A DNA stretch of 64,000 bases from positions 1,718,158 through 1,782,157 of the forward strand of contig OZ252242.1 of the NCBI GenBank assembly GCA_965249595.1. Reading direction: 5' to 3'. Source of the stretch: Chloroflexota bacterium (GTDB lineage Bacteria; Chloroflexota; UBA11872; VXNJ01). Every line of letters starts with the position of its first letter. The stretch's first letter is position 1. Below are positions 3,916-43,300 of the stretch, piece after piece. The notes below the pieces were generated by a model, which was given only the letters and a program-made list of their open reading frames with translations, had not been told where the DNA came from and did no database searches. The translations under genes were made by a program, and so were the position numbers.

Positions 3916-5391
3916 TTGAAGTTGAGCGAAGCCGAGATTAGGCTTACCTTGTGGGGTAGAGAGCGACCATATCGAGGTGACAGCGTGCGGGAGAGCGACG
4001 CCGGACTTTTGGCGCACTTGATGCGCCGTGCGGGCTTCGGGGCGACCAGGTGCGAACTGGAGGAATTGGCCACAAAGGGTTACGCGGCCGTGGTCGAGGA
4101 TCTCGTCAACCCGGAACGGTCTCCAGAGGTTGAGGATGATGTCCTCGAGCGGTACTACACCGGCCTAAATGCATCGGAACCGATCGATGTCTACGCCGCC
4201 GGTTGGATCTACTGGATGGTCAACACCAGGCGCCCCTTGCAGGAGAAGATGGTGCTCTTCTGGCACCACGTGTTCGCGACAGGGTGGCACAAGAACGAGA
4301 ACGTCCCTGCCGCGGTCGGTCAGATCGCCACATTTCGACGCAATTGCCTCGGCCACTTCCGCGACATCCTGCTGGATCTGTCGCGGGATCCAGCCATGAT
4401 CGATTGGCTGGACAACCAGGAAAACCACAAAGGCGCGATCAACGAAAACTACGGACGCGAACTGTTGGAACTGTTCTCGATGGGCGTGGGCAATTACACT
4501 GAGACGGACATCAAGGAGGCCGCCCGCGCGTTTACCGGATGGTCGTTCGAACAGCCGATCCCGCTTTACCCTTGTGGGTACTTTCCGGCGTATTTTCGTT
4601 ACCGGGAGGATGACCACGACGATGGGGAAAAGATCTTCCTCGGCCACAGCGGACGATTAAACGGACAGGACATCATCGACATCGTTGTCGAGCAACCGGC
4701 CACGGCCAGATTCATCTCCAGACACCTGTACAACTTCTTTGTTGCGGATGAGCCACAGGTGCCGGCGTGGCAGACAGTGCCTCCGCAGGATCCGGACGCA
4801 ATCGATACCCTGGTCAATGCGTTCGCCGAATCTGACGGTGATATCCGGGCGGTGATGCGAGTTCTCTTCAACTCTGATTTCTTCAAAGACGCCCGCTATA
4901 AAAAAGTCAAAAGCCCGGCCGAATTCGTAGTCGGCGCGACGAGGATGTCGGGGGCCCACCAGTTCCCTGAACCGGGGTTGGGCGATCTGGTGGTCGCCGC
5001 CTCGGCCATGGGTCAGTATCTCTACAACCCGCCTACCGTCGAGGGCTGGCACACCGGCAAGGAATGGATCGATGGGGGCACCCTCAACGAAAGGGTAAAT
5101 TTCGCCGTCGATCTCGTCGGCGACACGTCGCAGCCCGGTATCCGCGAGATCATCGGTAGCGTGTGCAATGGCTCTTCGAATTCGGGTGCGCTGACTCCAG
5201 CGGAATTCGTAGACAAATGCCTCGACGCGGCCGGCGCCCTAGAGCTGAACGCCGAAACCAGAGCGGCACTGATCAGACACGCCGAGGCCGACGGGGGATT
5301 CCATCCGAATGGTGATAACGGGCAGGTCGAAGCCCGGGTGATCAGGATGTTGCAGCTAATTGTTTCGTCAACGGAGTACCAGTTCGCTTAG
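3916..5391 (+). CDS. DUF1800 family protein (alternative GTG start at 3985 with GAGGTGA SD)
   Basis: HLMRRAGFGAT, LFWHHVF and DWLDNQ match DUF1800 hallmarks. It lies immediately upstream of a DUF1501 gene, the canonical pairing. Confidence 0.8.
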   Translation: MKLSEAEIRLTLWGRERPYRGDSVRESDAGLLAHLMRRAGFGATRCELEELATKGYAAVVEDLVNPERSPEVEDDVLERYYTGLNASEPIDVYAAGWIYWMVNTRRPLQEKMVLFWHHVFATGWHKNENVPAAVGQIATFRRNCLGHFRDILLDLSRDPAMIDWLDNQENHKGAINENYGRELLELFSMGVGNYTETDIKEAARAFTGWSFEQPIPLYPCGYFPAYFRYREDDHDDGEKIFLGHSGRLNGQDIIDIVVEQPATARFISRHLYNFFVADEPQVPAWQTVPPQDPDAIDTLVNAFAESDGDIRAVMRVLFNSDFFKDARYKKVKSPAEFVVGATRMSGAHQFPEPGLGDLVVAASAMGQYLYNPPTVEGWHTGKEWIDGGTLNERVNFAVDLVGDTSQPGIREIIGSVCNGSSNSGALTPAEFVDKCLDAAGALELNAETRAALIRHAEADGGFHPNGDNGQVEARVIRMLQLIVSSTEYQFA

Positions 5392-6684: not shown

Positions 6685-7698
6685 ATGGGACGTCCATACG
6701 CCTTACTGCGAACAGGTTTTCCTTACGTCAAAACAATCGGCATGAGGCGAATCACCAGCTATCCCATGCAAGTGGTGGTCACTGATGACGACCGGTTGTT
6801 TGTGCTGTGCCGCGGTGAAGGAACAGTCAACATCCGCAGAACCAACCAAGACGACATAGATCTCGGTTCCATCGGCGGTATCGGCACCGGCGATGGCCAA
6901 TTTATTTGGGCGGCTTCATTGGCGATGGACGGTGACGAGAAGTTGTACGTCTCCGACGAAGCCCTCAATCGCATTTCGGTCTTTAACGTCGATGGCGAAT
7001 TCCTGGGTAAATGGGGCGAACCCGGCGACGGCGATGGCCAACTGGACCGGCCGTCAGGGATCGCATTTGACTCCGACGAGAACCTTTACGTTGCCGACAC
7101 GCTAAATCACCGCATTCAGAAATTCACCAAGGACGGCGTTTTCCTGAAGAATTGGGGCGAGTTTGGGGAGAACGAGGGTCAATTCAACATGCCCTGGGGC
7201 ATTTGCGTGGATGAATTGGGCGAAGTGTACGTCTCCGATTGGCGCAATGACCGCATTCAAAAATTCACCGCCGATGGTGAGTTTGTAATGTCGATAGGTG
7301 GATCGGGCAACGGCAAGGGCGAATTCAACCGGCCGACGGGCGTTGCCGTGGACGGTGACGGTGACATCTACGTGTCCGATTGGGGCAACGACCGCGTCCA
7401 GCAATTTGCTGCCGATGGTCGGTACCTGGAATCCTTCAGAGGCGACGCTTCGTTTTCCAAATCAGCGACCGAATACTTGATGGCGAATCCCAAAACGATG
7501 CGGTTGCGGGAGATGACTTCACTCGAACCGCAAAAACGGTTCCGCCATCCCACTTCCGTAACCGTTGACGGCCAGGGTCGGATGTTTGTCACCGATTTCG
7601 GTTCTTTCCGCATCCAGATGTATCAAAAACAAGCAATTGCTTTGACGTCTGATCAGATCTCGCCCGAGCAACGGGCGCCGACTCTTTATCTCGCATAG
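6685..7698 (+). CDS. NHL-repeat beta-propeller protein
   Basis: Six repeats of the form LYV(S/A)D..N.RIQ.F..DG.F...(W/G)G..G.G.G.F..P.G(I/V)A.D. Confidence 0.8.
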   Translation: MGRPYALLRTGFPYVKTIGMRRITSYPMQVVVTDDDRLFVLCRGEGTVNIRRTNQDDIDLGSIGGIGTGDGQFIWAASLAMDGDEKLYVSDEALNRISVFNVDGEFLGKWGEPGDGDGQLDRPSGIAFDSDENLYVADTLNHRIQKFTKDGVFLKNWGEFGENEGQFNMPWGICVDELGEVYVSDWRNDRIQKFTADGEFVMSIGGSGNGKGEFNRPTGVAVDGDGDIYVSDWGNDRVQQFAADGRYLESFRGDASFSKSATEYLMANPKTMRLREMTSLEPQKRFRHPTSVTVDGQGRMFVTDFGSFRIQMYQKQAIALTSDQISPEQRAPTLYLA

Positions 7699-8002
7699 TT
7701 TTTCTTCTTGCGTGCGGAGCAGCCCGAACACAAGACCCGGGAAGAGACCACGGACCCAAGCACCGATAATCCGCCGCGCACCGCCGCGGCCACGATTTAA
7801 ACGCGATCAGTAATCGGGACACCTGTTCTGTCCGCTCCGGGCATTCCAAGCTCCAAATCGGGCGTTGCTCGCAAGACTGATCCGACGCTTACTAAAGCAT
7901 TGCGTAGATATAACACCCATTATGTCTAGTATCTTGGGTACTAAGTATTGGGATGCCAAAACCCGCTAACGCCAATCCCTAAATTTCGCGATTTGCTTTG
8001 AG

Positions 8003-21618: not shown

Positions 21619-23022
21619 TTAAAGCGGTGGTCGCTGCCAGCCGCCCAGCGATTCCTCAATGCATTGTGCCAAGGCCAGCGCAATGTCTTCACGCCAAGGC
21701 TTGGCAACGACCTGCACGCCGATAGGCAAACCGGCGCCTGAGGTTCCGGCACGGACAACCGCCCCCGGCCAACCGGTCATGTTGTGGATCATCGCGTACA
21801 TGGACCCATCTTTGTACCTGGGGGTGTTGGATTGACCATGGGATATCGCTGCATGGGCGTGGGCCGGGCAAAGAATCGCGTCGTAACCCGATAGAAACGA
21901 GAGCATCTGCCGTCGGAATTCATCGACCCAGACCAGGATTTCAGCCAGTTCGGTCACTGACGGCCGGTGTTCGCGTTGAAATTCAATCGCCTGTTGCATG
22001 AGTTTGTGACGCCTACTGGTCCCGGCCCGGGCCAGGATGCGGCTCAATTGATCGCCACCCACTCCGGCATTGAAAGCGTGGAACTGGCTCCTGATTGATT
22101 CCAAGCAAAGGGGTCGATCCTCCACCACCGTGACCCCGGCATCAGTGAGCGCCGCCGCCGCGTTTCGGATTGCTTCGGCAGTCTTCGGTGTGACAGGAAC
22201 TTCTGGTATGTCCGTATGGAATGCAACTCTGAGCCCCGCCGGATCTACGTCTCTGGGATTGCGCAACGCGACCGGAGCCACAGTTGGATCTGCGCCATCT
22301 GGTCCGGCAAGTATCGGGAGAGCAAGGGCCAGATCTTTCACATATCGTGCCAATGGGCCCAATTGCCAGAGCTGCGAGAGGCCGCCGGCGAAAGCGGGGT
22401 AGTGTCCCGTGCCGGGAACGCGTCCGGAAGTTGGCTTGATGCCGGCAATACCGCAGAAATGAGCCGGTCCGCGAATGCTCCCGCCCACATCGCTGCCTAC
22501 GCCCAGCGGCGATTGCCCTGACGATATTGCGGCGCCTTCGCCGCCACTACTTCCACCAGGGTGGCGAGAAGGGTCGTAGGGGTTGTTGGTTCGGCCGTAA
22601 ACGAGATTGTCAGTTTCACCGGCAGCGGAAAGTTCTGGCAAGTTCGACTTGCCGATCACGATCGCCCCGGCGCGCTTGAGCCTGGCCACTACGGTGGCAT
22701 CCTTGACCGGAACATATTCGGCGCGCCCCAGGGTTCCGCCGGTTGTCGTCACGCCCGCCGTTTCAACAGCATCTTTTATCGTGATCGGAACCCCATGCAG
22801 CGGTCCGACTAAGGTGCCGCGGGATAACTCTCTATCCAATTGCCGGGCTCGGGCTAAGGCAGAGTCCGCCAGCACGATTACGACCGCGTTGAGGATTGGA
22901 GTCACCGCTTCGATGCGATCCAAGTGGGCTTGGACCACTTCGACTGACGAAACCTGCCGGTCCCGGATCATGCCAGCCAGAGAGGACGCGGATCTGAATA
23001 TCAACTCATCCATGGCGCACAA
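21619..23022 (-). CDS. Amidase (amidase-signature family)
   Basis: GGSSGGEGAAISSGQSPLGVGSDVGGSIRGPA amidase signature with the Ser-cisSer-Lys elements. Confidence 0.85.
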   Translation of the reverse strand: MCAMDELIFRSASSLAGMIRDRQVSSVEVVQAHLDRIEAVTPILNAVVIVLADSALARARQLDRELSRGTLVGPLHGVPITIKDAVETAGVTTTGGTLGRAEYVPVKDATVVARLKRAGAIVIGKSNLPELSAAGETDNLVYGRTNNPYDPSRHPGGSSGGEGAAISSGQSPLGVGSDVGGSIRGPAHFCGIAGIKPTSGRVPGTGHYPAFAGGLSQLWQLGPLARYVKDLALALPILAGPDGADPTVAPVALRNPRDVDPAGLRVAFHTDIPEVPVTPKTAEAIRNAAAALTDAGVTVVEDRPLCLESIRSQFHAFNAGVGGDQLSRILARAGTSRRHKLMQQAIEFQREHRPSVTELAEILVWVDEFRRQMLSFLSGYDAILCPAHAHAAISHGQSNTPRYKDGSMYAMIHNMTGWPGAVVRAGTSGAGLPIGVQVVAKPWREDIALALAQCIEESLGGWQRPPL

Positions 23023-23515
23023 CCCTTTAATGACGGCGGTGATTTATTACCGTCGCAACGACTCTTCCCGATAGGCGGCCGAACCCTGTCGTATTCTGAC
23101 CCGCACCTTCGCCGTCGCAGTCGATGGCCTTTAGAGATCATCATGGTTATCTTGTATCTTGGAGGCGTGGTCAAATGGCTGTTTCCATCCGCTAACCTGA
23201 CAGCTTCGACCGTAGGCATCATGCCGCGTTCAATCGCTAGCCCTTGCTGATACAGCTTCTTAGAGAAATAAATTGATATCGACTGTACTGGCCGGACTCC
23301 ACCGTGAGATTTACAGCTGTGCGTGACGGAGGTACCGCACGCGTCGCCGGCAAAGTTGATTGGAGTCAAGATCAGCACACGAAAAATCGGATTGCCCAGA
23401 TTCAAAAGGTTCTACTTGGCCAAGAACGAGATTGAAGCCGTGTTTGAATTACTGAAATACACTACCTATTTATACTTACAATTACGTAATGTCAGTGAGT
23501 GATAATCCGACGTGA

Positions 23516-23794
23516 GAATGGAACGGAAGCAAGGATGAGGCGAATTACCGTGCACACGGCTTTCGATTCCAATTGGCCGCACTCGTATTCGATGACCCAC
23601 TCGCCGCGACAGTGGAGGACCCCAATTCGCTCGAAACGCGTTGGCGCACGATGGGCGTTGTAGCGGGAGTGGTGTTGATGGTCGTCCACACGTGGCCCGA
23701 ATACGATTCCTTGATCGGAACCGATGTCGGGCGCATCAGCAGCGCTCGAAAAGCGACCCGGAGAGAAAGGGCCGAATATGAAGCTGGTTCCTAA
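23516..23794 (+). pseudogene. brnT: BrnT-like (DUF497, COG2929) type II toxin gene lacking a canonical start
   Basis: In-frame translation EWNGSKDEANYRAHGFRFQLAALVFDDPLA...VVLMVVHTWPEYDSLIGTDVGRISSARKATRRERAEYE matches the DUF497 consensus (EWD..K...N..KHG.SF.EA..VFDDP...HT...RIISARKAT..ER..YE). A TGA at 23513-15 directly precedes the homologous region, and the first in-frame start is TTG at 23573. Confidence 0.6.
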
Positions 23795-24128
23795 AAAGCG
23801 ATCTGCCGAGCAAGCGCCGGATATTACAGAAATTGCCAAGTTGCCTGATGACCAAATCGACACGTCGGATATCCCCGAAGTGCTTGATTGGTCTGATGCC
23901 AGGCGTGGCGTCTTTTATCGACCAATCAAAAAACAAGTAACTATTCGAATAGATGCCGATGTAATCGATTGGTTCAAGAAACAAACACAAGGTCGCCGCG
24001 GATATCAAACCGACATGAATCGAGCCCTGCGAGAACATGCTTTGCGGGGCCAATCGGGAGCCAGTTTGGCGGAATCTGTCCAAAGCAAATCCGACTCTAA
24101 CTCCCTCGGGAAACCGGGCAATAGATAA
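23778..24128 (+). CDS. brnA: BrnA-like (COG3514) antitoxin
   Basis: MKLVPKK...DTSDIPEVLDWSDARRGVFYRPIKKQVTIRIDADVIDWFKKQTQGRRGYQTDMNRALREH matches the BrnA pattern. Overlaps the brnT 3-prime end by 17 nt; AAGGG SD upstream. Confidence 0.7.
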   Translation: MKLVPKKRSAEQAPDITEIAKLPDDQIDTSDIPEVLDWSDARRGVFYRPIKKQVTIRIDADVIDWFKKQTQGRRGYQTDMNRALREHALRGQSGASLAESVQSKSDSNSLGKPGNR

Positions 24129-24316
24129 GGTCTGGGTCTCGCGCCATTGCCCATTAAATGGCGGGAATACCGGGTCTTTTTTTCCGATGTGTACCCGTCA
24201 CGCCTTAAAAGAACGATCACTCATCTGGGTGTGAAATCGGGGGAAATGTTCGTGACCGCAACAACGAGTTCAACATGGTAGTTGCTGTCGTGTTGAACTG
24301 ACAAATTTTTCGTACG

Positions 24317-26056
24317 ATGCCCCGGATCGGGGTCGGGCCAGATACGGTCCCAAAATCTCGCGCGAAGGCCATGCAACTAAATGCAATTAACACCTTCTCC
24401 GATTGCTTGTCAATAATTGTTCGGGCGTGTCACGAAACAGGCGCCATTCTTACGAAACATCGGATGAGAAATTCGGCGTCGGAAGAACATCACAGGAAAT
24501 TCAATGACGCAGTTGGGGCGATTACAAAGCACCACGAACTGCATCGAATCGCCGGTGCGCACGTAGTCGACCACCGCCGGCTGACTACCGACCAATTGCG
24601 TGAGGGGCTACTGAAGGTAAGGCCGCAATACCTCCACCAGGAAACCGTTTGTTCGAATTTCGAACAAGCGTTGTTTAAAGAAGAAAGTACCCAGCTACGA
24701 GTGCTTTCGCGGTTGATCCTCGTCGATGTGCTGTTAAATCAATTCGGATTCGAATTGCCGTTTGATGAGACCGAGGAAATGGTCATTGCATTTGAGCAAA
24801 CGGTCGTGGACCGATCCAATGAGATTGAGCTTCAAGATCTGGGGTGCGCCAGCAACACGTCGACACGATTCAAAAACCTAAAACTATACGAGTTCGTGTT
24901 GGAAGTGGCATGGCAAAACAACGACGATAAGTCGCCCGATGAAGTCAATTTGTTAAGAATGCTCCGCGAACGGTTAGGTATTTCGGAATCTGACAATCGC
25001 CTGATGGAAGCGAAGCTTGGTAAATATCCAAAGCTGGACAACGGGCTCCACGTGCGAGACGAGATCGATGAAGCGCGTAAGTCCCTGCAGGGACTTGGTT
25101 TGCTGTTTGCAATTCGCCGAGAAGACGGTGCCGACGTAGATCTGGTCCCCGCAGAGGTGGCCGAACTGATCAGAAATGTGGTTGGCACCCAAATGCGGGA
25201 TGAAGCCTACCGCATGATGATTCGTGAGCGGCCGGTTCGAAAAAAGGCGCACTTGACCAGCGTATTGGAAAAGAACGGCGTTGAGTACGGCAGATATGAC
25301 ACTTTGGAGACGCTGACAGACCTAGTCGTCAGCTATGTTCCACCGACCAACGCCATTAGCAGCAATTCACCACGGTACGGGCTGGCCAATAAAGAACTTG
25401 CGGCGTGGTGCCGAAATCTCGGCGATTCCAGCTCTGGGACTACCGACGAGATGGTGGACCGAATAATTCGCCATTTTGATCGGCGACGACCGGTTGTTGA
25501 ACACCTCGATGACGAAAGGGCAACGTGGTACGAATACTTCGAAGAGCTAGCAACCCGATATTACGATTTGCTCCGGTCTCAGGATGTCATTGCCAAAGAC
25601 TTGGAAATTGAGTCAAAGTTTGAAGAAGCAACCAACTACCTTTTTTCGGAAAAGCTGAAGCACACGCCGCTCAAGCAGCCCGGTTCAAACCACCCGGACG
25701 GGCTGCTTAGCCTGGGTTCCTACTACCTAATGTGGGACAACAAATCGAAAGAATCACCCGTTAGTCTTCGCGACCACGTAAAGCAATTCGACGGTTATAT
25801 GGAGGCAGCTGAGAAATCAGTCCCAATTTTCTTGGTTATCGGCCCCGCGTTTTCCGACGAGTCGGAGATTGAAGCAATTCGGTACCGGGCCGAGCACTTT
25901 GATCGCGCGATTACATTGATTACGGCCGCCGAACTTAGAGATTTGGCCGAGGAGTGGGCGAGCCCTGAGAACAAGCGTCGCGAAGAGCCGTTTCCTCTTG
26001 GGCTTTTGGGTGTCAACGGTCGATATTCGCGGAGCCAGTTGGGGAAAATTTCATAA
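24317..26056 (+). CDS. Hypothetical 579-aa protein: SAP/HeH-like DNA-binding helices plus C-terminal PD-(D/E)xK-like nuclease motif
   Basis: AT-richer codon usage than neighbours. HeH/SAP-like segments SPDEVNLLRMLRERLGISESDNRLMEAKL and KELAAWCRNLGDSSSGTTDEMVDRIIRHF. C-terminal FEEATNYLFSE...HPDGLLSLGSYYLMWDNKSK has E..PD..(13 residues)..D-N-K spacing. Alternative ATG at 24371. Confidence 0.6.
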   Translation: MPRIGVGPDTVPKSRAKAMQLNAINTFSDCLSIIVRACHETGAILTKHRMRNSASEEHHRKFNDAVGAITKHHELHRIAGAHVVDHRRLTTDQLREGLLKVRPQYLHQETVCSNFEQALFKEESTQLRVLSRLILVDVLLNQFGFELPFDETEEMVIAFEQTVVDRSNEIELQDLGCASNTSTRFKNLKLYEFVLEVAWQNNDDKSPDEVNLLRMLRERLGISESDNRLMEAKLGKYPKLDNGLHVRDEIDEARKSLQGLGLLFAIRREDGADVDLVPAEVAELIRNVVGTQMRDEAYRMMIRERPVRKKAHLTSVLEKNGVEYGRYDTLETLTDLVVSYVPPTNAISSNSPRYGLANKELAAWCRNLGDSSSGTTDEMVDRIIRHFDRRRPVVEHLDDERATWYEYFEELATRYYDLLRSQDVIAKDLEIESKFEEATNYLFSEKLKHTPLKQPGSNHPDGLLSLGSYYLMWDNKSKESPVSLRDHVKQFDGYMEAAEKSVPIFLVIGPAFSDESEIEAIRYRAEHFDRAITLITAAELRDLAEEWASPENKRREEPFPLGLLGVNGRYSRSQLGKIS

Positions 26057-26210
26057 CCCTGGTCGGCACTAGCGATAAACACCTTTATGGCTAGTGGTCG
26101 ATTTGCATCGATTCAGCTGTTGGCTGACAGATATTTCAAATTCAACGTCGATCAAGCCGGACCTGCGCAGCAGATGACCAACCGCCGGTGCATTAGGCAG
26201 TCCCAGCCCG

Positions 26211-27437
26211 TCATTTGATGCGACGGTTGGCCTTGTCATAGACGGAGACCACGGTCGGTTCGCCCTTTTGTACGCCCTCTATCGTGGCCACATGAGCGGA
26301 GCGCACATTGAACACCTGGGGCCTAAAAAAGAAGACGGCCGAATCCCCCTGCCGAACGCGTTGGCCAGCGGTCGGGTACAGCGAGGCGTAGTAGTCGATC
26401 CATCGCGAGTCGGGAATCCCCGCCCTCACTCGATTGCCCGCCACGGCGTCCGGTTGATTGCCTACGAATGCGGCAGAAACCGCCCACGGACCGTCCAGGC
26501 GGGCAGGGTAGAACCCACCCCCCAGGACCATCATCCGATTTCGGGCCTGATGGGAAACCTCCGCCAGATAGACCTGGCCAGGCCGACCGACATCATCGCC
26601 GAATAATTGCTGCGGGGCCATGCCCCAAAAGGCCGAGCCCGGCTCGGCGTCCGTTCCACCGTGGGCCGCGATCAAATCCATGGACGCACAGGAGGAGGCG
26701 CCGGGACAGTTGATTTGAGACATTTCGACATGCAATAAATCCTGTATTCGCTGCGCCGAATCGATAATCGTCGCCAAGTTAGGCAGTGCCTTTAGCCTGT
26801 TGGTGGCAGCGTCATAGGCAATGGTCGGGAATCCTGTGACCCCCACCATGCGAACCGCCGGCAGATCCCTGATCTTGCGGGCAACAGCGACAACGTGCTC
26901 GGAGAAAATTCCGCCCTCTTGCGCGGTGTAGGCAAAGTCCTCTGGCCCGGTGACCTTCAACAGCAAGTCCTGGATCAGGCCCGCCCCCATCGCCGCTTCG
27001 GAAATGGTTCTTGCGTTCTCATAGCCGTAAACCGTCCATACGTCGGGTCTCATGGACAGAACTTCGGGAATCCAGAAACGGGGAATCTGGGAAAGATGCC
27101 CTACGTGGGCTACGTCGAGCCCCTGAGCACTAATGGCTCTGGCACCCTCAATGTCGACGGCAACGAACTTTTTGACTCCGGCTGAGGAAAGTGCCTCAAG
27201 AATCGAGGGGTTGCGGTTGAACTGCTTTGTCATGGCATAGAGCCGCAGGCTTTTGGCTTCCGCCTGCTTGACCAGCAGGCGAGCGTTCTCCTTGACAACT
27301 TCCAGATCTACCACGTAGCAGTCCGGCGGTATTTCGCCACGTTGATGCAGGCGGCACGCGGCCTCAATCAGGGCAGGGTTGGTCCGCTCGACGATTTCCA
27401 GCATGATGCCAGGGAACCTTACCCGAACAGAGAGCAC
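26211..27437 (-). CDS. Alanine-racemase-domain (fold-type III PLP) protein, YhfX/DSD1-like; likely start 27404
   Basis: LYAMTKQFNRNP (candidate PLP-lysine) in an N-terminal TIM-barrel-like region. Family assignment is tentative. Confidence 0.5.
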   Translation of the reverse strand: MLSVRVRFPGIMLEIVERTNPALIEAACRLHQRGEIPPDCYVVDLEVVKENARLLVKQAEAKSLRLYAMTKQFNRNPSILEALSSAGVKKFVAVDIEGARAISAQGLDVAHVGHLSQIPRFWIPEVLSMRPDVWTVYGYENARTISEAAMGAGLIQDLLLKVTGPEDFAYTAQEGGIFSEHVVAVARKIRDLPAVRMVGVTGFPTIAYDAATNRLKALPNLATIIDSAQRIQDLLHVEMSQINCPGASSCASMDLIAAHGGTDAEPGSAFWGMAPQQLFGDDVGRPGQVYLAEVSHQARNRMMVLGGGFYPARLDGPWAVSAAFVGNQPDAVAGNRVRAGIPDSRWIDYYASLYPTAGQRVRQGDSAVFFFRPQVFNVRSAHVATIEGVQKGEPTVVSVYDKANRRIK

Positions 27438-31099: not shown

Positions 31100-32600
31100 G
31101 TTGTAAGGGGGGGACTCTCTACCATTTGTCAAGCCGCTGCGGCATCACTCCGGAGCAGTTCTGGCTGATAAAGGGTCTGGTTACGCAGCATAGCGCAGAC
31201 CACCGCCAACAAACGGTCAGCTACCGATCGCAACGCCCTTGCATGCCGATGGCCTCGAAGGCGTAATGCGTCGTATTTGCGTCGGCTGACCGGATCATGC
31301 TGAACCGCCACCCGGGCCCAGTGGTACATGGCATTGGCGAGTCGACGATGGACGGCATGGCGTCGGACAACGATCATGCTCTTGCCCGATCGCTTGGTTA
31401 TCGGCGCAACTCCGCATAATGAGCGCAGGGCGCGATAGTCTCTCCGCATAAGAGGATCATGCGCCTCGGTGAGCAGTGTGGCGAGGACCGTCCTTCCGAC
31501 TCCGGGAAGAGATGAGAGGATGGCCACGTCGCGCTGCCCGCTCTCACCCAGTGCATCGTTGGCGATGGCATCGGTTAAGCGGTCGATCTGGGTGTTGACC
31601 TCGAGCAGTTGACGCTGGATGAGCTTTAGACGTTCGGCGACCAGGGTGATCGTCGCGACGGCAGCCTCGGTTGTGCCCGGAGACACCTTTATCGCTTCCT
31701 GGCGCAGCATCGAGAGCACGCCTGTCGCATCAATGCGACGGATGCGATGGCGTTTTAGCAACTGGGTTACCCGGCCTCGACTCAATCGCCGCCCCCTCTC
31801 CGGTGTGGGAGCCATCTGCCACAGATCCAGGATCCATGGCTCGGTGACGTTGTTGCTGATCTCCAGGACCTGCGGATAGTAGCGCCAGAGTTGTTGTCGC
31901 ACCCGGTTGCTAAGGCGGGTGCGCTCCTTGGTGAGCTCCTGAAGCCAAACGTGAGAACTCTCTTAGCTCCACGGTCAAGGGATCTGGCGATGCCAGCTGC
32001 CGCAGCACCTGCGGATCGGTGCGCAGGGCATCGGCCAGGACCCTGGCATCGCGGCGGTCGTCCTTGGCGCCGGCTGGGAAGAAGCGATCACGGAAGCGAT
32101 CGAGTTGCTTGGGGTTGATGGCATGCACTTTAAACCCGCGATCGAGCAGGCTCTCGACCACCGGTCCATGCGGCACCTCAATGGCGATGGCGATATCTTC
32201 GGGGTCGGTTCCGGTGCGGGACAGGATCCAGGCGGCCATGGCCGCCAATCCGGATCCACGATGCGGGAAATTACGCTGACCATGTTCGTTGCCGTCAGCG
32301 TCGATGATGCAGACCTGGTGCTCGGCGATGGCCCTTCTCGATCCGGCGTACCAGGAAGTGTGTTCTTTCACGGTCCTTCCCCATGTGTGGTGCGCGATGG
32401 TATTGATCGCATTGAAGGTCCGCCACGACACCTGCCAATCCCTGTACCGGCGTTCTAAGACGCAAACTCTCCACGGGGCATCTGCCGCGGCCAGCTGCAC
32501 CGGGGCACGGGTCCCCCCCACGGTGCTCAAAAGACACAAGGGGCGATTGGTTACTCCCGGCCGCTGACCTTGACGTCATCCAGGCTGAGCAGAGCATCGC
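31100..32600 (-). mobile_element. IS110-family insertion sequence (boundaries approximate)
   Basis: Contains the IS110 transposase coding region, N-domain and C-domain in collinear order; IS110 elements lack terminal inverted repeats, so ends cannot be fixed by eye. Confidence 0.65.
31129..32539 (-). pseudogene. IS110-family transposase, split by a frameshift between 31913 and 31962
   Basis: ORF 31910-32539 is the DEDD N-domain (VCIIDADGNEHG..., IAIAIEVPHGP...AINPKQLDRFRDRF). ORF 31129-31902 is the C-domain (LQELTKERTRLSNRVRQQLWRYYPQVLE..., LPGVGRTVLATLL..., GVAPITKRSGKS). End coordinates differ by 1 mod 3. Confidence 0.7.
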
Positions 32601-32960
32601 GCATGCCCAATTGCTTAGTCAGATGAAGCTACCTAAAGGTACAGGGGCTTTGATTTTGCCCGGAGATCGCCGCTTTTATACTCATGGCCCACGATACCGA
32701 ATTCCCCGGGCGGCTGCCGCCTGGGGCCGCGTCGCATCGCTGATTGAGACCTGCAAGATGAACGGCGTCGAGCCCTACGCCTGGTTCAAGAGCACGCTGG
32801 AGAAGATCGCCACCGGCCACCCGCAATCGAAGATCCACGAGCTGCTGCCCTGGAACTTCGGGCCCGCGACCGACGCCGACTGACGACGGCGCTCAATCCG
32901 CCCTTCGATAAATCCCCATAGTCAACCCGGATCCCGATATGGGGTCAGGCCACCGCTTAC
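32600..32960 (+). mobile_element. IS66-family 3-prime fragment (transposase C-terminus plus terminal inverted-repeat end)
   Basis: WGRVASLIETCKMNGVEPYAWFKSTLEKIATGHPQSKIHELLPWNF matches the IS66 TnpC C-terminus. About 70 nt downstream, ccaccgcttac is the complement of the canonical IS66 terminal GTAAGCG... Confidence 0.6.
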
Positions 32961-33526
32961 GAAAGACCTGGACGAGTGGATTCTTCATGGCCATGTCTCG
33001 ATCCCATCCAGAGAACAACCATAGCCCCAACGAGGATGGCGGGAACCGCGGCGTAGAGCACCCCGTTCCAGCCAAGCAGCTGCATGACTGCCCCCGCACT
33101 CAAGGAGGCAATGGCCGAGATACCCATAATGCTGAAATCGTTCAGCGCCTGGACACGGAAGCGTTCGGCTGGACGATAGGCTCGGGCCAGTAGCGTCGTT
33201 CCTCCAATATAGAGGAAATTCCAGCCGACTCCGAGCGCCACCATGGCCAGGCCGTAGTGCAGCATGTGGCGGCCCGCCAGGCCCGCAACCAGGGTGGCGC
33301 CAAGCAGCGCCCCTCCCACAATCATCACCCGCACGGCGCCGAAGCGTCCGATGAGAACACCACTGAACAATGAAGGAAGATACATCGCCAGCACATGGAC
33401 CTGGATGACCGCCGCCGTTGCCGCCAGGGAATACCCGTCGAAAACATGCAAAACGGCGACGCCGCTCTGCCATTGATCTTTGCAGTTATTCCGGCGATCG
33501 GCCTGACCTACTGCCGGCTGCGGCAC
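32957..33526 (-). pseudogene. MFS transporter C-terminal-half fragment
   Basis: Six TM helices of MFS C-domain type (GGALLGATLVAGLAG..., LGVGWNFLYIGGTTLL...). N-terminal half absent. The stop codon TAA lies inside the IS66 terminal repeat (revcomp of tta 32957-59), so the 3-prime end is truncated by the IS66 insertion. Confidence 0.55.
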
Positions 33527-35880: not shown

Positions 35881-36118
35881 TTATCTGGGCATTATTACGC
35901 AATTGTGCGCGGGCCTGGCCAGCCTCCGCGCGGCCGACCTGATCGGCTCCGGAATTGATGGCCGATACGAAGGTCAGTGCCGGTTTGAAAAAAACTCAAG
36001 GCGATCAATTTATTGCATATACGATCGAAAGTAAACGACCACTCTGATCGCTGGATGAGTGGTTCGGAGTATTCTTCATCTCAAATCGACGTCAGTTGAG
36101 TATTGGAAACAATTGCAT

Positions 36119-36490
36119 ATGGATCTTGGCGCTTTTTCAATCAGCCTCGCAGTTGCCGACCTTGAAGCTTCGCGAGAGTTTTATGAACAATTGGGGTTTG
36201 AAAAAGTCGGCGGAGACCCTTCCCAAAATTGGCTGATCGTGCGAAATGGTGACCACACCATCGGCCTATTCCAGGGAATGTTTGAAAAGAACATCCTCAC
36301 ATTCAATCCCGGGTGGGACAAATTCGGCAGTCAGCTCGAATCATTCACCGATGTTCGAGAGCTCCAGCGCCGATTGAAGGCCAATGGCATACACATCGCC
36401 GACGAAGCCGATGAAAACGGCGTTGGGCCAGCAAATTTCTTGGCAGTGGACCCAGACGGCAATCCGATCCTGGTCGACCAGCATTGTTGA
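36119..36490 (+). CDS. VOC/glyoxalase-family protein
   Basis: [30 protein letters not shown] glyoxalase betaalphabetabetabeta module. Confidence 0.65.
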
Positions 36491-36618
36491 CGGCGCTGTT
36501 AATCGCAGAGCAGTCGAATAATCAGGCAGCGATAGACCGCCCGAATTGATTCGGCAGGGCAAGCAAAGCCGCCATTGGAGCGAATACTGATCGCCCTACT
36601 ATTGGATGCCTCCAATCT

Positions 36619-37128
36619 TTACCCGCGAATTTTTTCCAAAGCCTCCTGGGCCAACTCTTTGAGATCCGGAATATTCTGGCGGACCCATTCGATTTTTGAA
36701 ACTGCCCTTGATTCGTGAAATTCGCCAAGCTGCCAAATCACGACGTAGGCATAGGAGGGATAGTGGGGTACCTTGGGCCCGAACACCGGATGGTAGTCGG
36801 CGGCATGGATCGTCTCGACCCGGGTAAGCAAATCCAGCAGGTGCATCCTAATTTCCTCTGTATCGGGAGATTCTTTCCAAACTACCCGTACGTAGGAAAG
36901 CCCTGAGGCAATTTCAGCCGTCAATATGGGGCCGATCGGGACCGGATCCTTTTCCGGAGTTCGAAATTGGTGATTTAGGCAATATGTGTAGCCGGGATCC
37001 TCGATTGCCTGATTTCGGATTTCGCAATAATGAGGGCCGCGCGGCACGCGTTCGGCATGCTCACCCTGATCACGATTGGCGCGATTTGACCAACACGTGG
37101 CGCAATTGTCGGATCCGCCATTGGGCAT
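36619..37128 (-). CDS. Hypothetical protein with N-terminal Cys/His cluster (C-x2-C...H-Y-C...C-L-N-H)
   Basis: Long ORF with codon bias like its neighbours; no recognisable family. Confidence 0.4.
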   Translation of the reverse strand: MPNGGSDNCATCWSNRANRDQGEHAERVPRGPHYCEIRNQAIEDPGYTYCLNHQFRTPEKDPVPIGPILTAEIASGLSYVRVVWKESPDTEEIRMHLLDLLTRVETIHAADYHPVFGPKVPHYPSYAYVVIWQLGEFHESRAVSKIEWVRQNIPDLKELAQEALEKIRG

Positions 37129-37395
37129 AAGTTACTTGGCCTCGCCGACGTAGCTCACCGGTTTTCGTTCAAATCTACGGCAATTAAGCGCAAGAATCGC
37201 CCCTACCGAAGGGAATTGGTCGGCCAAGCCGCGCCTTTTCTGTCGACGGGCAAATCACGCAGTTCGATTCTTGGAATATTCGTCCAAGCAGGCACTCCAT
37301 CTCTTGGTGGCGCAGGCAGAGTATTGATAACCCGAAATGTCTAGCGCTGGAAAAATACCTCGTACAGCCGCCAGTAAGGCGGCCACCGGAACTAC

Positions 37396-40300
37396 CTAGT
37401 CATTTACCGGAACGGGCACCAGATAAACATCGTAAGCGGCATCAGTTCCCAACGGCTCGGCGGCGTGAAACGGATCGTGATCGGCGAAATCGGGAACCAG
37501 TTGATCTCTGAGAATGTCACCCAACAGGGCGAGTTTTACCGGCAGCGGATCGCCTGGATGATATTCAAACACCGCCGCCTGGAAATACTGGCGGGTGAAT
37601 CCATAGGTCGTGCCCTCCGCGTGCAGTCTGCCGTCAAGACGCACATCAACCCTGGCATCGGTTTTGGGAAAGCCGAATGCACCCACTCCGCCCAGGTCGT
37701 AGAAGAAAGCTGCGAAGCCAACTTCGGCTCCTTCTATTGAGAAATCCGATACCTTGTGACCCCAGGGACCAAACGGCTCTCCCGGGTTGGGGTTTAAAAT
37801 CCCGGGCTCGGTACCCTGGTCCAAAGAGCCACCTACACCACCGCCGAGAGAGTCCCAGCCCAATCGGCGTTCCACCAGCCAGCCCTGACCGACGTTGTGG
37901 AAATCGACTACACCGCGCTGATAGAACTGGGTTAAGGTGCCGGTTTCCAAAACCAGGACCTCAGAGGTTGGATAACCCCAGCGATCCAATTTTCCGGTGG
38001 CTTCATAGTGCGCCAGGAAGTTAGCCTGCACGACAAGGCCATTGTCAAGCGTTACTGTCAGGTTTGGAATGTTGTGGAGCAGGTCGCTTTTGCCCGGTGC
38101 CTGCACCGAGAGGCTGACGGCCACTTCAACGGCGTGGGCAAATTCGGGAAGGATCGGATCCGGCGGGACGATCCGCCGCCCACCGCCGCCTCCACCGCCG
38201 CCGCTTCTGCTGACGCTGCGGCGCAGCGATGGTCTACCGGATTGAGAGGGCGACCAGGCGCCGACGCCAGAAGAGTTTTCGGCCCGGATCTGCAGCTCAT
38301 AGTCGCTGTCGTTGTCAAGTGCCGGGAGAATAACCTCTAGGCGACGATCGCCAATCGCCCAGATACTTGACATCAGCGTCCAGGAACCTGGAACATCGGG
38401 CGCGCTGGCGAATTTGTGGCGAAGGTCATAGGACTCGACCCGGGCGCCGCCGTCGGAGGATGGCGGCCGCCAAACGACGGTAAGGAACTGATCTCCCGCC
38501 GTCGCGCTGGTGATATTCGGTGCGGTTGGCCGCTGCACAATGGTGGTTCCGGTCACCGGCTCAGACCGTTCGCCGGCGCCGACCGAATTGCGCGCCCTTA
38601 ACTCCACGTTGTAGCTGATCCCGTCAGCCAGCCCGAGGAGCGAGTACTCAAGGCTGCCACCGGTCCAGATACTTCGAACTTCGGTCCAAGAGCTTGCTTG
38701 GTCCGGATCTTCATTTTTCTTATAGCGAAGGCCGTAAGCTGTTATCGCGCTCCCGCCAGGATCCGTAGGGCTCTGCCAGCTGATCATCAATGTGCGAATT
38801 CCACCGATTACCGATTGGATAGCGGGGGGCCCGGGGACGGATATCGGTGTTCCGTCGCCAGATTCCGACCAACCACCGGAGCCGGCGATGTTGACGGCGC
38901 TAATTTGTACGTCGTAACCAGTCCCGTTGGCTAGACCACCCAGGGAATAGGCGAGGCGTCTACCGGACCAGACATCTTGAATTTGCGTCCACGATCCGGA
39001 AACATCAGGGGCGAGGCTTCTCTTGTGGCGAAGGTGGTAGGTGGCTATCTCAGCCCCGCCGTCGTCAATCGGCCTTTGCCAGCTGACGATCAAAGTGCGG
39101 TTGCCAACTTCGACCGCACTAACGGTTGGAATGCCCGGTATTACTACCGGAGTTCCGGAACGCGTTGAGGACCATGGTCCGGGATCCAGCTGAGAATCGG
39201 CGCGCACCTGGAGATCGTAGGACGTGCCGTTGGCCAACCCGGACAGTGAATACTGTCGGTTCCCGCCGGACAAGATGCCGATAACTGTGGTCCACGAACT
39301 TGGGCGGTCCGGATTCCGGCTTCTCTTGTGGCGAAGATCGTAATTGGTAATTGGTGACCCGCCGTCGTCCGTAGGGCTGAGCCATTCGACGGTCAATTCC
39401 CTGTCGTCAGCGGAAATAGTTCGGATAACCGGTTTTCGTGCATTGTCATTGGGCACGCCGCTGCGAGGACTCGACCAGCTTCCGCCGCCCGCCGCATTTA
39501 CTGCTCTGACCTGCACGTCATAGGGTGTGTCATTGAGCAATCCGGATAGTGAGTATTCGAGATTGCCGCCGGACCAGATATCGAGCGCCTCTGTCCAGGA
39601 GCCTGGCTCATCCGGATCACTGCTCCGCTTTCGACGAAGATCATAGCCGGTTACGACAGCCCCGCCGGTGGCTGATGGGCGTTGCCAGCTAATGATGAGT
39701 CCCTGGAAATAAGAGACGACTTCAGTGACATTAGGGCGCCCCGGCACCGTCCTGGGGGTAGCGTCACTGGACGTTGACCAGACACCTTCGCCTTCGGCAT
39801 TTACCGCTCTGATTTGAATGTCGTAGGCAGTTCCATTGCTCAGCCCGGAAGAAATCGAAAAATTGAGATTGCCGCCGCTCCAAAAACCCGAAACCAGGGT
39901 CCAGGAACCGGGCACGTCGGGGTCAAGGCTTCTTTTGCGTTGCAGGTCGTAGCCGGTAATTTCAGCGCCGCCGTTATCGCTTGGCTGATTCCAGTACACC
40001 GACAATTCCCGCGGTCCGGGTTCGATTTGGCTGATCGTTGGTGACCCGGGAACCGTTCTCGGGATACCGTTAGCGGATGTCGACCAAGCGCTGGCGCCAG
40101 CGGAGTTGACCGCCCGGACTTGGACGTCATAGGTAATTCCGTTGTCTATCCCGGTGGAAATCAGGTAGCTACGTTCGCGGATCGGCCAGACCGCAATGAT
40201 TTCAGTCCAGTTTCGATTCAGATCGGGAGCGCTGCCGCGCTTGTGCCGAAGGTCATAGCCGGTAATTTCAGCGCCGCCGTTAGCACCCGGGGGATCCCAA

Positions 40301-43300
40301 AAAACCTTCAGTTTTAGCGGGCCAGGATCAATTTTGCTGATGTTGGGTTCACCCGGGACTGTCCTGGGGGTACCGGTCCGGGGCGCGGACCAGGCGCCGT
40401 CGCCGCCGGCATTGACGGCCCTGATTTGCACATCGTAGGCAATCGAATTTTCTAGTCCGGAGACGGTGTATTCAAATCGACCTCCGGCCGATATCCGATC
40501 AATTAGGGTCCACGAGCCTTCAACGTTTGGGTCGCTGCTTTTCTTGTGGCGGAGGTCAAAGCTGGTAATCGATGCGCCGCCGTTTTGCGAGGGACTTTGC
40601 CAGCTGACGGTCAGCAAATTAACACCGGCCTCAACGTCGACAATCACGGCCGCTCCGGGTACCGTCCTGGGTGTGCCGTTGCGTGAAAGAGACCAGACGC
40701 CGTAATTAACTGCCGTGGCCGCCCTGATTTGAATGTTATAACTGGTCCCGTTTTCCAACCCGTAGACGGTGGCCTCGAGATCACCGCTCGACCAGGTCCT
40801 CAACTCCTCGGTCCAGGAACTCCCCTGGTCTGGGTCGGCACTCTTCTTGTGGCGAATGTCATAGTGAGTGATCTCGCCACCACCAACGTCGGTTGGGCGT
40901 TCCCAGAAAACTTTTAATTGCCGTGGATCGGGATCGATTGCGCTGATAATTGGCGCCCCCGGCGGTTTTTGCGGCATAGCGCTAAACGAAGTCGACCATG
41001 CGCCAAAGCCGGCGGGATTGACCGCCCTAACCTGTAGGTCATAACCGGTCCCGTTATCCAAGCCGGCAACGATGGCTTCGAGGTCGCCGTTCGACCAGAT
41101 GCCGAGATCCTCAGTCCAGGAACTCTCCTGGTCCGGATCGGCGCTCTTCTTGTGGCGAAGGTCGTAACTGGTGACCGCAGCACCCCCATTAAAAGACGGT
41201 CGCCGCCAGCTGATCGTCAGCGTGCCGTCTCCCGGTTTTGCCTGCCTGATGGTCGGTGCTCCAGGGATAGTTCGCGGCGTACCGATTCGGCTGTCTGACC
41301 AATCACCGCGGCCGGCGGCATTGACCGCTAGTATCCCCACCCAATACGATTCGCCGTTTTCAAGGCCAGTCAATACCAGGGCGAGTTTTGCGTCGTCGCC
41401 GGCGGTCCAAGCAGCCTGCAGTTCCCGCCAAGATCCGGCGACATCGGGGTCAATGCCTTTCGATAGACGCAGGTCATATGAAGTTATCGGGGCGCCGCCA
41501 TCGTTTGCGGGCACCGACCAGATGACGGTCAATCTGCCGTCACCGGGCAGCAAGGGGGAAAGCACGGGCTCGCTCGGGTAGGTATACGGCGTGCCCGTCT
41601 TTGTCTCTGACCAGGGTCCCGGGCCAACCGAATTTACCCCTCGCACCTGAGCTTCATAGCTATCGCCGCCCGCCAGCGGAGCGACGATGTGATTCGACCG
41701 ATAGCCGGCAATATCCTTTTCAATTACCCAATCGGAATCTTGCCGACCGGAGAAAAGACTTCGACTCCGAACTTCCCAATAATCTACCGGCGCCGTATCT
41801 TCGTCGGAATATTCCCAACTGACCTCCAGCGAAGATTGAGCCGGGGCGACTTTAAATTCGATAGCGATTGATGGAGGATCGATCGGAACCCCTTGGTCTT
41901 CAATCCAAAGGCCCGCACCGGCAATGTTTAACGCCCTGATTTGGACGTCGTATTTGGTGCCGTAGTCCAGTCCAGCAATCTCGTATTTGAGATCGCCGCC
42001 GGCCCAAAAGTTAAAAACTTCAACCCAGGCGTCTGCCGGATTGGGATCTTCGTTGTCCCGATAACGCAGATCGTAACCGGAAACCGCCGAGCCGCCATTG
42101 TCAAGCGGGACGGTCCAGCTGAGTTGCAGCAGTTTGATGCCGGGCTTTATCGAGATGCTCGCCGGCAAGCCCGGGGTAGTGCGAGGGGTTCCTGATGTCG
42201 CGTCGGACCAGCGGCCAATTACAGCCCCGCTGACGGCACGTATTGACACATCGTATTCGTGTCCGTTGGTTAGTCCGGTGATGGCATATTCGGTGCTCCC
42301 AGAACTCCAAATCCCATTGCGCACGGACCAGGACCCGGTCAGGTCAGGGTCACTACTAAATTTGTGGCGCGAATCAAACCTGGTAACCGTGGGGCCACCC
42401 GCTCCCGGCGTCCATTGCACGGTCAAATTGCCGGCTCCGCCGGTTAACGAATCGATGGTTGGTGAACCGGGGGCATTTTTTGGAGTTCTGCTCAACGTGA
42501 ACGACCACCCGCCGCCGCCAGCGGCGTTTGCCGCCTGGAGTTGGACATCATAGGAAATGTCGTTGGTCAGATTGGATATGTCGTGCCTAAAGATTTTGGG
42601 GCGATGTCCCCGGCGTTGTCAACCGGAGTCCAGCGGGAATCCGCCTTGTCGGTGGCGTCACTGCGGATGTAACGCAGGTTGTAGGCGGTAATCGGCGATC
42701 CACCGGTGTCGGTGAGTTCGGCCCAGATCACCTCGATACTCTGATCAAAGCCACTGGCCGCGGTGATGCTAGGAGTTCCGGGCGCTCTTCGCGGCGATTC
42801 CCGTCTGACCAGGGACCAAAGCCCGGACCCATTGGTGTTTTGAGCGCGAATTTGGAAGTCGTATTCGATGCCATTGGTCAAACCGCTGCTGACGGTGTGG
42901 GTGAGGGCGCCGCTCGACCAAATCGATGCTTCAACGGTCCATTCGTCATCGGCCCGTTTTTCGGCATCGGCCCTTATGAATCGCAGGTCGTAGGTTGTAA
43001 CCGGCGATCCACCGGTAACCGTCGGGGCTTGCCAGGTCACGGTCAGCGATCCGTCGCCGGGCGTGGCCACAGTGATCGTCGGGGACCGCGGAACCGGCGC
43101 GGGGGTGCCCGTCTGAGACTCCGACCATGGACCGTCGCTGTTGAGATTGACCGCTCGAATTTGAACATCGTATTCGATGGTGTTGACAAGCCCGGTCAGT
43201 AGATAACGCCGCGCTCCAGAACTCCAGATAATGCTTCCCTCAGTCCAGTTGCCATCCACGCTCTCGTCGGCATCGGTCCGGATGTGGCGGATATCGTAGG

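Follow-up and report, generated by a model that had tools for sequence, protein, structure and literature searches.

The 64,000-nucleotide stretch of contig OZ252242.1 from a Chloroflexota bacterium (assembly GCA_965249595.1, positions 1,718,158 to 1,782,157 of the forward strand), in its full length referred to as the window, carries between an amidase gene and a YhfX-like racemase gene a variable segment of low GC content, the islet. It harbours a BrnT/BrnA toxin-antitoxin (TA) pair and one large open reading frame (ORF), which belongs to a conserved family of solitary proteins with SAP, winged-helix and FokI-type cleavage folds and which is called here the nuclease.

Layout and composition of the islet

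The genes and features of the locus, in the order of their coordinates, are the following:

21619..23013, minus strand: amidase gene, left flank, outside the islet (PF01425, E 6e-106; 464 aa as called in the sister strains)
23019..26145, no strand: islet, low-GC variable segment, bounded by homology from the amidase start to the conserved 66-nt tail past the racemase stop
23019..23488, no strand: left spacer, 470 nt, GC 0.487, no recognisable gene
23489..23794, plus strand: brnT toxin gene, 101 codons (PF04365, phrog_4399), broken by a TGA at codon 9
23778..24128, plus strand: brnA antitoxin gene, 116 aa, intact (PF14384, phrog_30665), overlapping brnT by 17 nt
24129..24493, plus strand: spacer and upstream region of the nuclease gene, with a T-run at 24176-24183 after brnA and the frame open from 24317
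24494..26056, plus strand: solitary SAP/winged-helix/FokI-like endonuclease gene, 520-codon family ORF, canonical start AGG here
24494..24928, plus strand: N-terminal all-helical domain, residues 1-145, with invariant AHVVDH, PQY and SNE motifs
24935..25384, plus strand: helix-extended-helix (SAP-like) motif and two winged-helix-like units, residues 148-297
25388..25480, plus strand: SAP domain, residues 299-329 (PF18953, E 0.0012 in the window protein)
25655..26053, plus strand: FokI-type PD-(D/E)xK cleavage domain, residues 388-520, with predicted catalytic D402, D415 and K417
25697-25699, 25736-25738 and 25742-25744, plus strand: catalytic candidates D402, D415 and K417, respectively
26057..26145, no strand: right junction; similarity to nuclease loci ends at 26078 and similarity to the L004 racemase locus begins at 26145
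26211..27437, minus strand: YhfX-like/alanine-racemase-N gene, right flank (PF21279 and PF01168), the 3' end of which marks the variable slot

The bounds of the islet follow from homology. On the left, the similarity of the amidase to its orthologue in the relative L095 stops at 23018, while on the right the similarity of the racemase side to L004 (OZ244573, the complete 2.36-Mb chromosome of the closest species representative) covers 66 nt beyond the racemase stop and ends at 26145. A preliminary description of the segment had placed the amidase start at 23022; it is most likely 23013. Within the left spacer, the ORF at 23001-23405 on the minus strand has no match in Pfam, NCBIfam or PHROG, and the spacer DNA shows similarity to the sister strains only, among all loci compared; presumably, it holds the divergent promoters of the amidase gene and of brnTA. 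Promoter and terminator scans of the islet gave no signal above shuffled sequence. Further downstream, DNA similarity to the nuclease homologues in L002, L003, L098 and L099 begins only at 24493-24496, and among nuclease copies it extends from this first codon to at most 22 nt past the stop.

The lower GC content proposed for the segment is confirmed by sliding-window GC, third-codon-position GC (GC3) and tetranucleotide analysis, in all of which it deviates from the window average. The GC content of the homology-bounded islet (23019-26145), 0.509 against 0.588 +/- 0.017 for non-overlapping 3.2-kb windows (z = -4.6), is the minimum of the 64 kb, the lowest non-overlapping 3.2-kb comparison window being at 0.549, and in tetranucleotide distance from the average the islet ranks first of 153 windows (z = 5.2). 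The 1-kb bins over 23-26 kb have a GC content of 0.508, 0.499 and 0.528 against 0.55-0.65 in the other bins, and in the 200-nt profile a dip extends from about 23100 to about 26200, with its onset just past the amidase start and a trough of 0.445 at 23301-23500. The GC3 of the large ORF is 0.58, compared with a mean of 0.689 (standard deviation 0.048) for 43 long ORFs (z about -2.25), with an equally low value in just one other long ORF of the window (36619-37128), and the GC at its first and second codon positions (GC1 and GC2) is low as well. The low-GC run quoted previously is present at 24872-24905, but is plain coding sequence (KNLKLYEFVLEV) within a conserved motif of the nuclease.

What does not hold is the use of low GC by itself as a signature of recent transfer. 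In 20 of 22 loci, the GC content of the nuclease gene is below that of its flanks, with a mean difference of -0.069 at host flank GC contents of 0.36-0.67; across the 22 loci it spans 0.30-0.64 and follows the GC content of the host (r 0.90). Low GC thus characterises the family and is on its own no mark of recent transfer here. A second low-GC patch (GC 0.507) occurs at 36000-37130; the ORF at 36619-37128 on the minus strand (169 aa) has no Pfam match and, with 0.574, the lowest GC3 in the window.

As had been noted by inspection of the sequence, the features of an integrase-mediated genomic island, which are an integrase or recombinase, a tRNA gene or other attachment (att) site and flanking direct repeats, are absent from the islet. 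Searches of the islet ORFs against Pfam, NCBIfam and PHROG detected no recombinase or integrase domain, no tRNA or tmRNA gene was found in the whole 64-kb window and the search for direct or inverted repeats flanking the islet, around 23050 and 26200, gave only chance matches of 11-14 nt. The transposase nearest to the islet, of the IS110 family at 31.1-32.6 kb, belongs to an insertion that is specific to the strain and has nothing to do with the islet.

A conserved family of solitary SAP/winged-helix/FokI-like proteins

The large gene, regarded beforehand as an orphan, has 209 homologues in a search of 5.8 billion proteins and 247 matching cluster representatives in an exhaustive HMMER scan of 1.84 billion representatives. 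The best 120 of the 209 homologues, which are mostly about 520 aa long, 51-82% identical and designated 'hypothetical' where named, derive from Chloroflexota, SAR202, Dehalococcoidia, Armatimonadota and Polyangiaceae. Pfam, NCBIfam, PHROGs and PADLOC hold no model for the nuclease, weak SAP matches being the sole signals, with PF02037 (SAP) above the gathering score in the members P0125, P0130, P0138, P0259, P0142 and P0169. Several members reach 16.5-18.8 bits against FokI_cleav_dom (PF09254), below the cut-off of 25, while the window protein has no match to it, and in distant representatives no other effector domain is recognised besides SAP and the sub-threshold FokI_cleav_dom. Neither the single protein nor the 88-sequence profile retrieved any sequence from the PDB, and the searched literature contains no description of a SAP/FokI-like defence family.

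Conservation within the family is high. Over 88 aligned sequences the mean column identity is 68%, with many invariant residues in the N-terminal half, and the motif PDG...WDNKS as well as D402, D415 and K417 are invariant. The pairwise ratio of non-synonymous to synonymous substitution rates (dN/dS) of 0.045-0.067 for pairs in which dS is unsaturated demonstrates very strong purifying selection. Nuclease proteins of Chloroflexota and Polyangiaceae are still 53% identical, which argues for horizontal spread.

With respect to structure, the AlphaFold2 model calculated from the 88-sequence alignment (predicted local distance difference test score, pLDDT, 91) has FokI as top full-length structural match (Foldseek E 8e-6, probability 1.00), and the predicted C-terminal part shows the FokI-type PD-(D/E)xK cleavage-domain fold. 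In the profile alignment with hhalign, which is weak (E 0.14), the family motif GSNHPDG...WDNKSK comes to lie on GGSRKPDG...VDTKAY of FokI, with D402/D415/K417 placed on D450/D467/K469. A separate model of residues 1-345 (pLDDT 90.6) matches generic winged helices only (TFIIIC, TubR, MarR/ArsR, ORC, Z-alpha); neither the FokI recognition domain nor the methyl-sensing winged helix of DpnI is among its matches, and there is no PUA-type match. For the N-terminal helical domain of about 145 residues neither a structural nor a sequence match was found. Three metagenome contigs (L082 512-757, L083 748-993, L084 2884-3129) carry, in mid-contig, the nuclease core alone (residues 409-490, 67% identical), either as remnants of the gene or as part of another architecture that has this cleavage domain in common.

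The copy in the window is unusual in its start. As listed, the large ORF extends over 24317-26056 with in-frame ATGs at 24317, 24371 and 24464, while the homologues all start at a position that reads AGG (Arg) in the window, through the change T24495G, and ATG in the two sister strains as well as in 99% of the family. As the frame is open upstream and offers these ATGs, translation may still occur. The ATG at codon 50 was considered as compensation for the lost start and was rejected, because L096 has the same ATG. The exact-protein look-up of the 579-aa ORF retrieved no record. Changes of the window lineage in the nuclease gene comprise six non-synonymous substitutions, the start included, and six synonymous ones, with the catalytic residues unchanged. 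The sister strain L001 has 19 substitutions of its own in the islet and 10 in 13.3 kb of flanks, which corresponds to an about 8-fold higher density in the islet; 17 of the 19 are located at 24458-25655, in or just upstream of the nuclease ORF, 9 being synonymous and 4 non-synonymous, and this cluster looks like a recombination tract from another allele.

Toxin decay and the age of the site

Both domains of the TA pair recognised in the preliminary description are confirmed, as BrnT matches PF04365 (E 5.9e-19, 68.6 bits at a cut-off of 34.5, profile positions 1-77) and BrnA matches PF14384 (E 7.3e-15, 55.6 bits at a cut-off of 26.1) and phrog_30665 (E 4e-17). The toxin-first gene order on the same strand with an overlap of 17 nt is the BrnTA arrangement, and the sizes of 101 and 116 aa equally correspond to this type II system, the prototype of which is found in Brucella abortus and the BrnT component of which is a ribonuclease toxin. 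The toxin ORF of the window differs, however, in being cut at codon 9, where a window-specific substitution (G23515A) turns TGG into TGA at 23513-23515, with an assembly error possible. The translation reads MSVSDNPT*EWNGSK... compared with MSVSDNPTWEWNGSK... in the intact counterpart of L096; the first in-frame start past the stop is a TTG at 23573, with which the conserved N-terminus would be lost.

In the sister strain L096, codon 9 is TGG and a full 101-aa BrnT and a 116-aa BrnA_antitoxin are called. The sister strain L001 keeps the TGG and has an extra T after codon 14, a frameshift that creates a TAA at codon 15, although this is a 6x assembly in which an error is possible. An intact toxin frame is thus present only in L096 among the three strains. 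Two distinct lesions within the first 15 codons of brnT, with none in the antitoxin gene, look like the loss of a chromosomal toxin, and the BrnTA of the window strain is a decaying addiction module that lost its toxin by a nonsense mutation. For BrnA and the 73-residue BrnT remnant past the stop (23573-23794), PADLOC-DB v2 (E <= 0.1) gave no family.

The islet is found at the same site in the three strains (that of the window, L001/L097 and L096) with 99% identity, and substitutions specific to the window are equally dense inside it (25 in 3197 nt) and outside (114 in 13353 nt). With three strains sharing the islet at an equal density of single-nucleotide polymorphisms (SNPs), it must predate the strain split. 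The nuclease proteins are 77-79% identical among Chloroflexota relatives, where neighbouring housekeeping genes are 78-84% identical. In L096, six strain-specific substitutions fall within 11 nt (26132-26142) just inside the right junction at 26145.

The proposal of an insertion between amidase and racemase fares less well in this comparison. Through the orthologues of either gene, no adjacency of the two was detected in other relatives, and an empty junction was not found because the genes are not adjacent elsewhere. The L002/L095 genome has an amidase orthologue (80%) with a different TA pair (FitA/PIN) and other genes, but no racemase gene, upstream; its nuclease gene is located about 26 kb from the amidase gene in the same relative orientation, with insertion sequence (IS), TA and defence genes in the examined parts of the interval. 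The FitA-like ribbon-helix-helix/PIN pair (L095 6862-7549) is placed divergently upstream of the amidase orthologue, which is the position of brnTA in the window, so that TA modules of different families recur at the 5' side of the amidase gene. A Phd antitoxin gene and an IS605 OrfB gene are also present near this orthologue.

It is the racemase side that behaves as a slot. Racemase orthologues are 78-89% identical in metagenome-assembled genomes of Chloroflexota. In L098, the nuclease (77%) and racemase (84%) genes are arranged as in the window, with HNH and PDC-S41 genes in between. L098 and L004 have flanks in common, the racemase on one side and a sulfatase/aldo-keto reductase on the other, between which L098 carries the nuclease, HNH and helicase genes (5.9 kb) and L004 a trypsin/DUF4352 gene (3.2 kb). 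This comparison identifies the 3' side of the racemase gene as a slot with interchangeable cargo. In L004, no full-length nuclease homologue is found among the best 120 of the 209 matches. The nuclease is a long-standing, yet dispensable, occupant of the racemase neighbourhood. The best reading of the islet is that of a small, old accessory segment in the cargo slot downstream of the YhfX-like racemase in a Chloroflexota genome of the Dehalococcoidia/SAR202 type.

Defence neighbourhoods and possible roles of the nuclease

Neighbours of the nuclease were analysed in about 75 loci, consisting of the window, contigs from exact-protein look-ups and metagenome loci (76). All-against-all clustering of 485 neighbour ORFs revealed no neighbour family common to more than three of these loci. 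brnTA is located beside the nuclease in no other locus; a three-gene system of brnTA and nuclease was consequently rejected, and the two are independent modules. A Pfam census that covered 150 ORFs at distances of up to 3 kb in 58 loci shows the commonest families to include N6_Mtase (3), Phage_integrase (3), Abhydrolase_6 (3), N6_N4_Mtase (2) and rve (2). DNA methyltransferases, of mixed types (I, II and III), occur in about 5 of the 58 neighbourhoods and not in the islet, and therefore are not an obligate partner of the nuclease. A viral origin of the nuclease received no support either, as IMG/VR, with 2.9 million viral contigs, contains no relative.

In the long contexts, on the other hand, PADLOC defence genes are found beside nuclease homologues in five of five tested. 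The neighbours in the long contexts are:

L002: GmrSD-type protein (2.6e-61) and a large methyltransferase-like protein
L099, the closest relative: GmrSD_C protein directly downstream
L016: PDC-M31A/B (1.8e-143, 7e-68)
L017: PDC-S01 (8.7e-160) and HicB
L098: HNH, PDC-S41 Schlafen-type helicase (1.6e-118) and SoFic (1.8e-110)
L003: Type II methyltransferase and IS elements

In L016, a full PNP_UDP_1 gene (4245-5072) beside the nuclease homologue is accompanied by an 88-aa PNP_UDP_1 fragment 2.4 kb away (7508-7774), with sulfatase and Uma2 genes in between, which may be an insertion scar.

Among the closest known systems to the nuclease is the Type IIS enzyme FokI (PDB 1FOK/2FOK), together with the related N.BspD6I and the small subunit of R.BspD6I. 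In contrast to FokI, the nuclease family has no adjacent methyltransferase and possesses a SAP domain, its N-terminal 345 residues gave matches to generic winged helices and none to the recognition domain as such, and the sequence similarity is sub-threshold in Pfam with no PDB sequence match. Compared with Type II specificity domains, the family is far more conserved than is usual. The winged-helix fusion endonucleases DpnI and HhiV4I are alike in being independent of nucleoside triphosphates (NTPs), in the modular combination of a winged helix with a nuclease domain and in standing alone; they and their relatives are Type IV enzymes dependent on N6-methyladenine, with a methyltransferase rarely nearby, and for this class the rule 'stand-alone, therefore modification-dependent' has been applied (PMC11037411). 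The nuclease likewise lacks a conserved methyltransferase neighbour, the sign of a stand-alone Type IV enzyme in that work (PMC11037411). A check for modification readers (SRA, EVE, YTH, ASCH, DpnI-type winged helix, iEndoIII) matched only generic winged helices (TFIIIC, TubR, MarR, Z-alpha). The solitary Type IV enzymes of the GmrSD type are also single-gene systems without methyltransferase in defence islands, and GmrSD-type genes adjoin the nuclease homologues in L002 and L099; their domains are unrelated, however (DUF262/DUF1524 versus SAP/winged helix/FokI-type), and the nuclease has no NTPase domain.

The missing cognate methyltransferase, a binding half as conserved as the catalytic half and the recurrent defence neighbours together led us to infer a Type IV-like single-gene restriction or defence nuclease. 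The reading as a whole, in which the islet combines two modules for defence and addiction and the nuclease acts in defence, has about an even chance of being correct. That the nuclease is modification-dependent in the manner of Type IV enzymes is a more tentative proposition. Equally tentative is the view that the helical/winged-helix/SAP/FokI-type proteins of about 520 aa constitute a new single-gene defence family, in which the conserved N-terminal module would sense a general feature of invader DNA, its modification or structure and not a sequence, and direct a FokI-type dimeric cut. In such a mechanism, the N-terminal helical domain, the winged helices and the SAP domain would bind the DNA that the C-terminal FokI-type PD-(D/E)xK domain (D402, D415, K417) would cut, probably after dimerisation and away from the bound site, by analogy with FokI, for which dimeric cleavage by the C-terminal domain is established. 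Host DNA would be spared through what the nuclease recognises, a general mark in the form of a modification or structure over a variable sequence; the missing partner methyltransferase suggests that recognition itself spares the host, and the conserved binding half points to a general mark. The acquired defence or addiction islet first proposed is partly supported, by the distinct composition, the cargo slot and the defence neighbours, whereas the segment is not recent and its modules are independent.

Several observations weigh against this picture. The nuclease protein matches no defence model of PADLOC (v2, E <= 0.1), NCBIfam or PHROG, and most neighbours in the census of 150 ORFs are ordinary metabolic genes. 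The association with defence genes derives from a handful of long contigs and comes without a background rate. The likeness to FokI is structural, with weak evidence at the sequence level (Pfam 17-19 bits at a cut-off of 25; hhalign E 0.14). For a defence gene, a dN/dS of about 0.05 and an identity of at least 50% between phyla mean unusually high conservation, with which a cellular role would fit as well. The AGG at the canonical start finally suggests that the copy in the window may be poorly expressed or decaying.

The cellular role just mentioned would make the nuclease a host enzyme of DNA metabolism, in repair, recombination or chromosome maintenance, with a low GC content due to amino-acid composition and low expression and a coincidental neighbourhood. 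Besides the strong purifying selection, a divergence near that of the housekeeping neighbours, the missing PADLOC match and a GC content that is under that of the flanks in 20 of 22 hosts, hence intrinsic, and low also in GC1 and GC2 are in line with this explanation. It is nevertheless considered unlikely, as the distribution is patchy, with the racemase slot of L004 filled by another gene, the gene position varies between related genomes, the gene recurs beside defence genes and the identity between Chloroflexota and Polyangiaceae implies horizontal spread. Quite unlikely is that the nuclease represents the restriction half of a split Type IIS-like restriction-modification system with its methyltransferase encoded elsewhere in the genome, and that it cuts foreign DNA lacking the modification at a constant offset from an asymmetric site. 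FokI itself is the best full-length structural match, and methyltransferases top the neighbour census and are located within 5 kb in L002 and L003; yet no conserved partner emerges from the few neighbourhoods that contain one, the islet is without any and the DNA-binding half is highly conserved, where true Type II specificity domains diversify.

Two further explanations concern the mobility of the islet. A single, recently acquired foreign segment of 3.2 kb, inserted with TA pair and nuclease together between amidase and racemase, would account for the sharp compositional shift at both borders and for the loss of similarity to relatives of both flanking genes right at these borders. It is nonetheless very improbable, since islet and flanks have equal SNP density across three strains, brnTA and nuclease are never together elsewhere, a linkage of nuclease and racemase, with other cargo in between, exists already in L098 and no empty site exists for genes that are non-adjacent in all relatives. 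Least probable is a selfish nature of the nuclease gene, which as a homing-type endonuclease gene would spread by cutting empty alleles and by its mobility would have given rise to the islet. This idea draws on a single gene without partner, on the confinement of DNA similarity between contexts to the ORF and on the many metagenome contigs that barely exceed the gene length or break inside the gene; similarity restricted to the ORF is, however, uninformative on the mobile unit, as flanks diverge anyway at 73% nucleotide identity, and short contigs are expected in a collection with a median of 1 kb. Moreover, the 2.9 million viral contigs contain no copy, no intron, intein or phage-like setting of the gene was observed, and the three strains inherit it stably at a single site. 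The comparison of L004 with L098 shows an exchange of multi-gene cargo and no indel of ORF size.

With respect to novelty, BrnTA, small AT-rich defence/addiction islets and modular nucleases without methyltransferase are already known, and the islet as such, a small AT-rich accessory patch with a TA pair and a nuclease, is routine. The locus illustrates, cleanly and on a small scale, how the content of a cargo slot is swapped and how a chromosomal TA pair loses its toxin, here through two different lesions among three strains. What is new is the architecture and family of the nuclease, which has no model in the domain and defence collections, no PDB sequence relative and no description in the searched literature, and a well-defined uncharacterised nuclease family is the most useful product of the analysis. 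This family is widespread in under-studied phyla (Chloroflexota/SAR202, Armatimonadota, Myxococcota), strongly conserved and situated among defence genes. Should it indeed sense modification or structure, it would provide a new type of sensor for Type IV restriction and a natural methyltransferase-free FokI-like cleavage module.

Elsewhere in the window, the IS110-family transposase at 31113-32643 on the minus strand consists of two ORFs, 31910-32539 (DEDD_Tnp_IS110) and 31129-31902 (Transposase_20), and is specific to the window strain, as L001 joins 31112 straight to 32644. Similarity to L001 ends at 33451 inside the gene for a transporter of the major facilitator superfamily (MFS), of which the window retains a 189-aa fragment (32957-33526), whereas L001 possesses the full 462-aa MFS gene followed by KAP NTPase and Mu-type transposase genes; this makes two structural polymorphisms, the IS110 insertion included, within 7 kb of the islet. 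Further downstream, at 37396-43373, a protein of 1699 aa with at least 14 fibronectin type III repeats is encoded, followed by a 268-aa fibronectin type III (fn3) protein.

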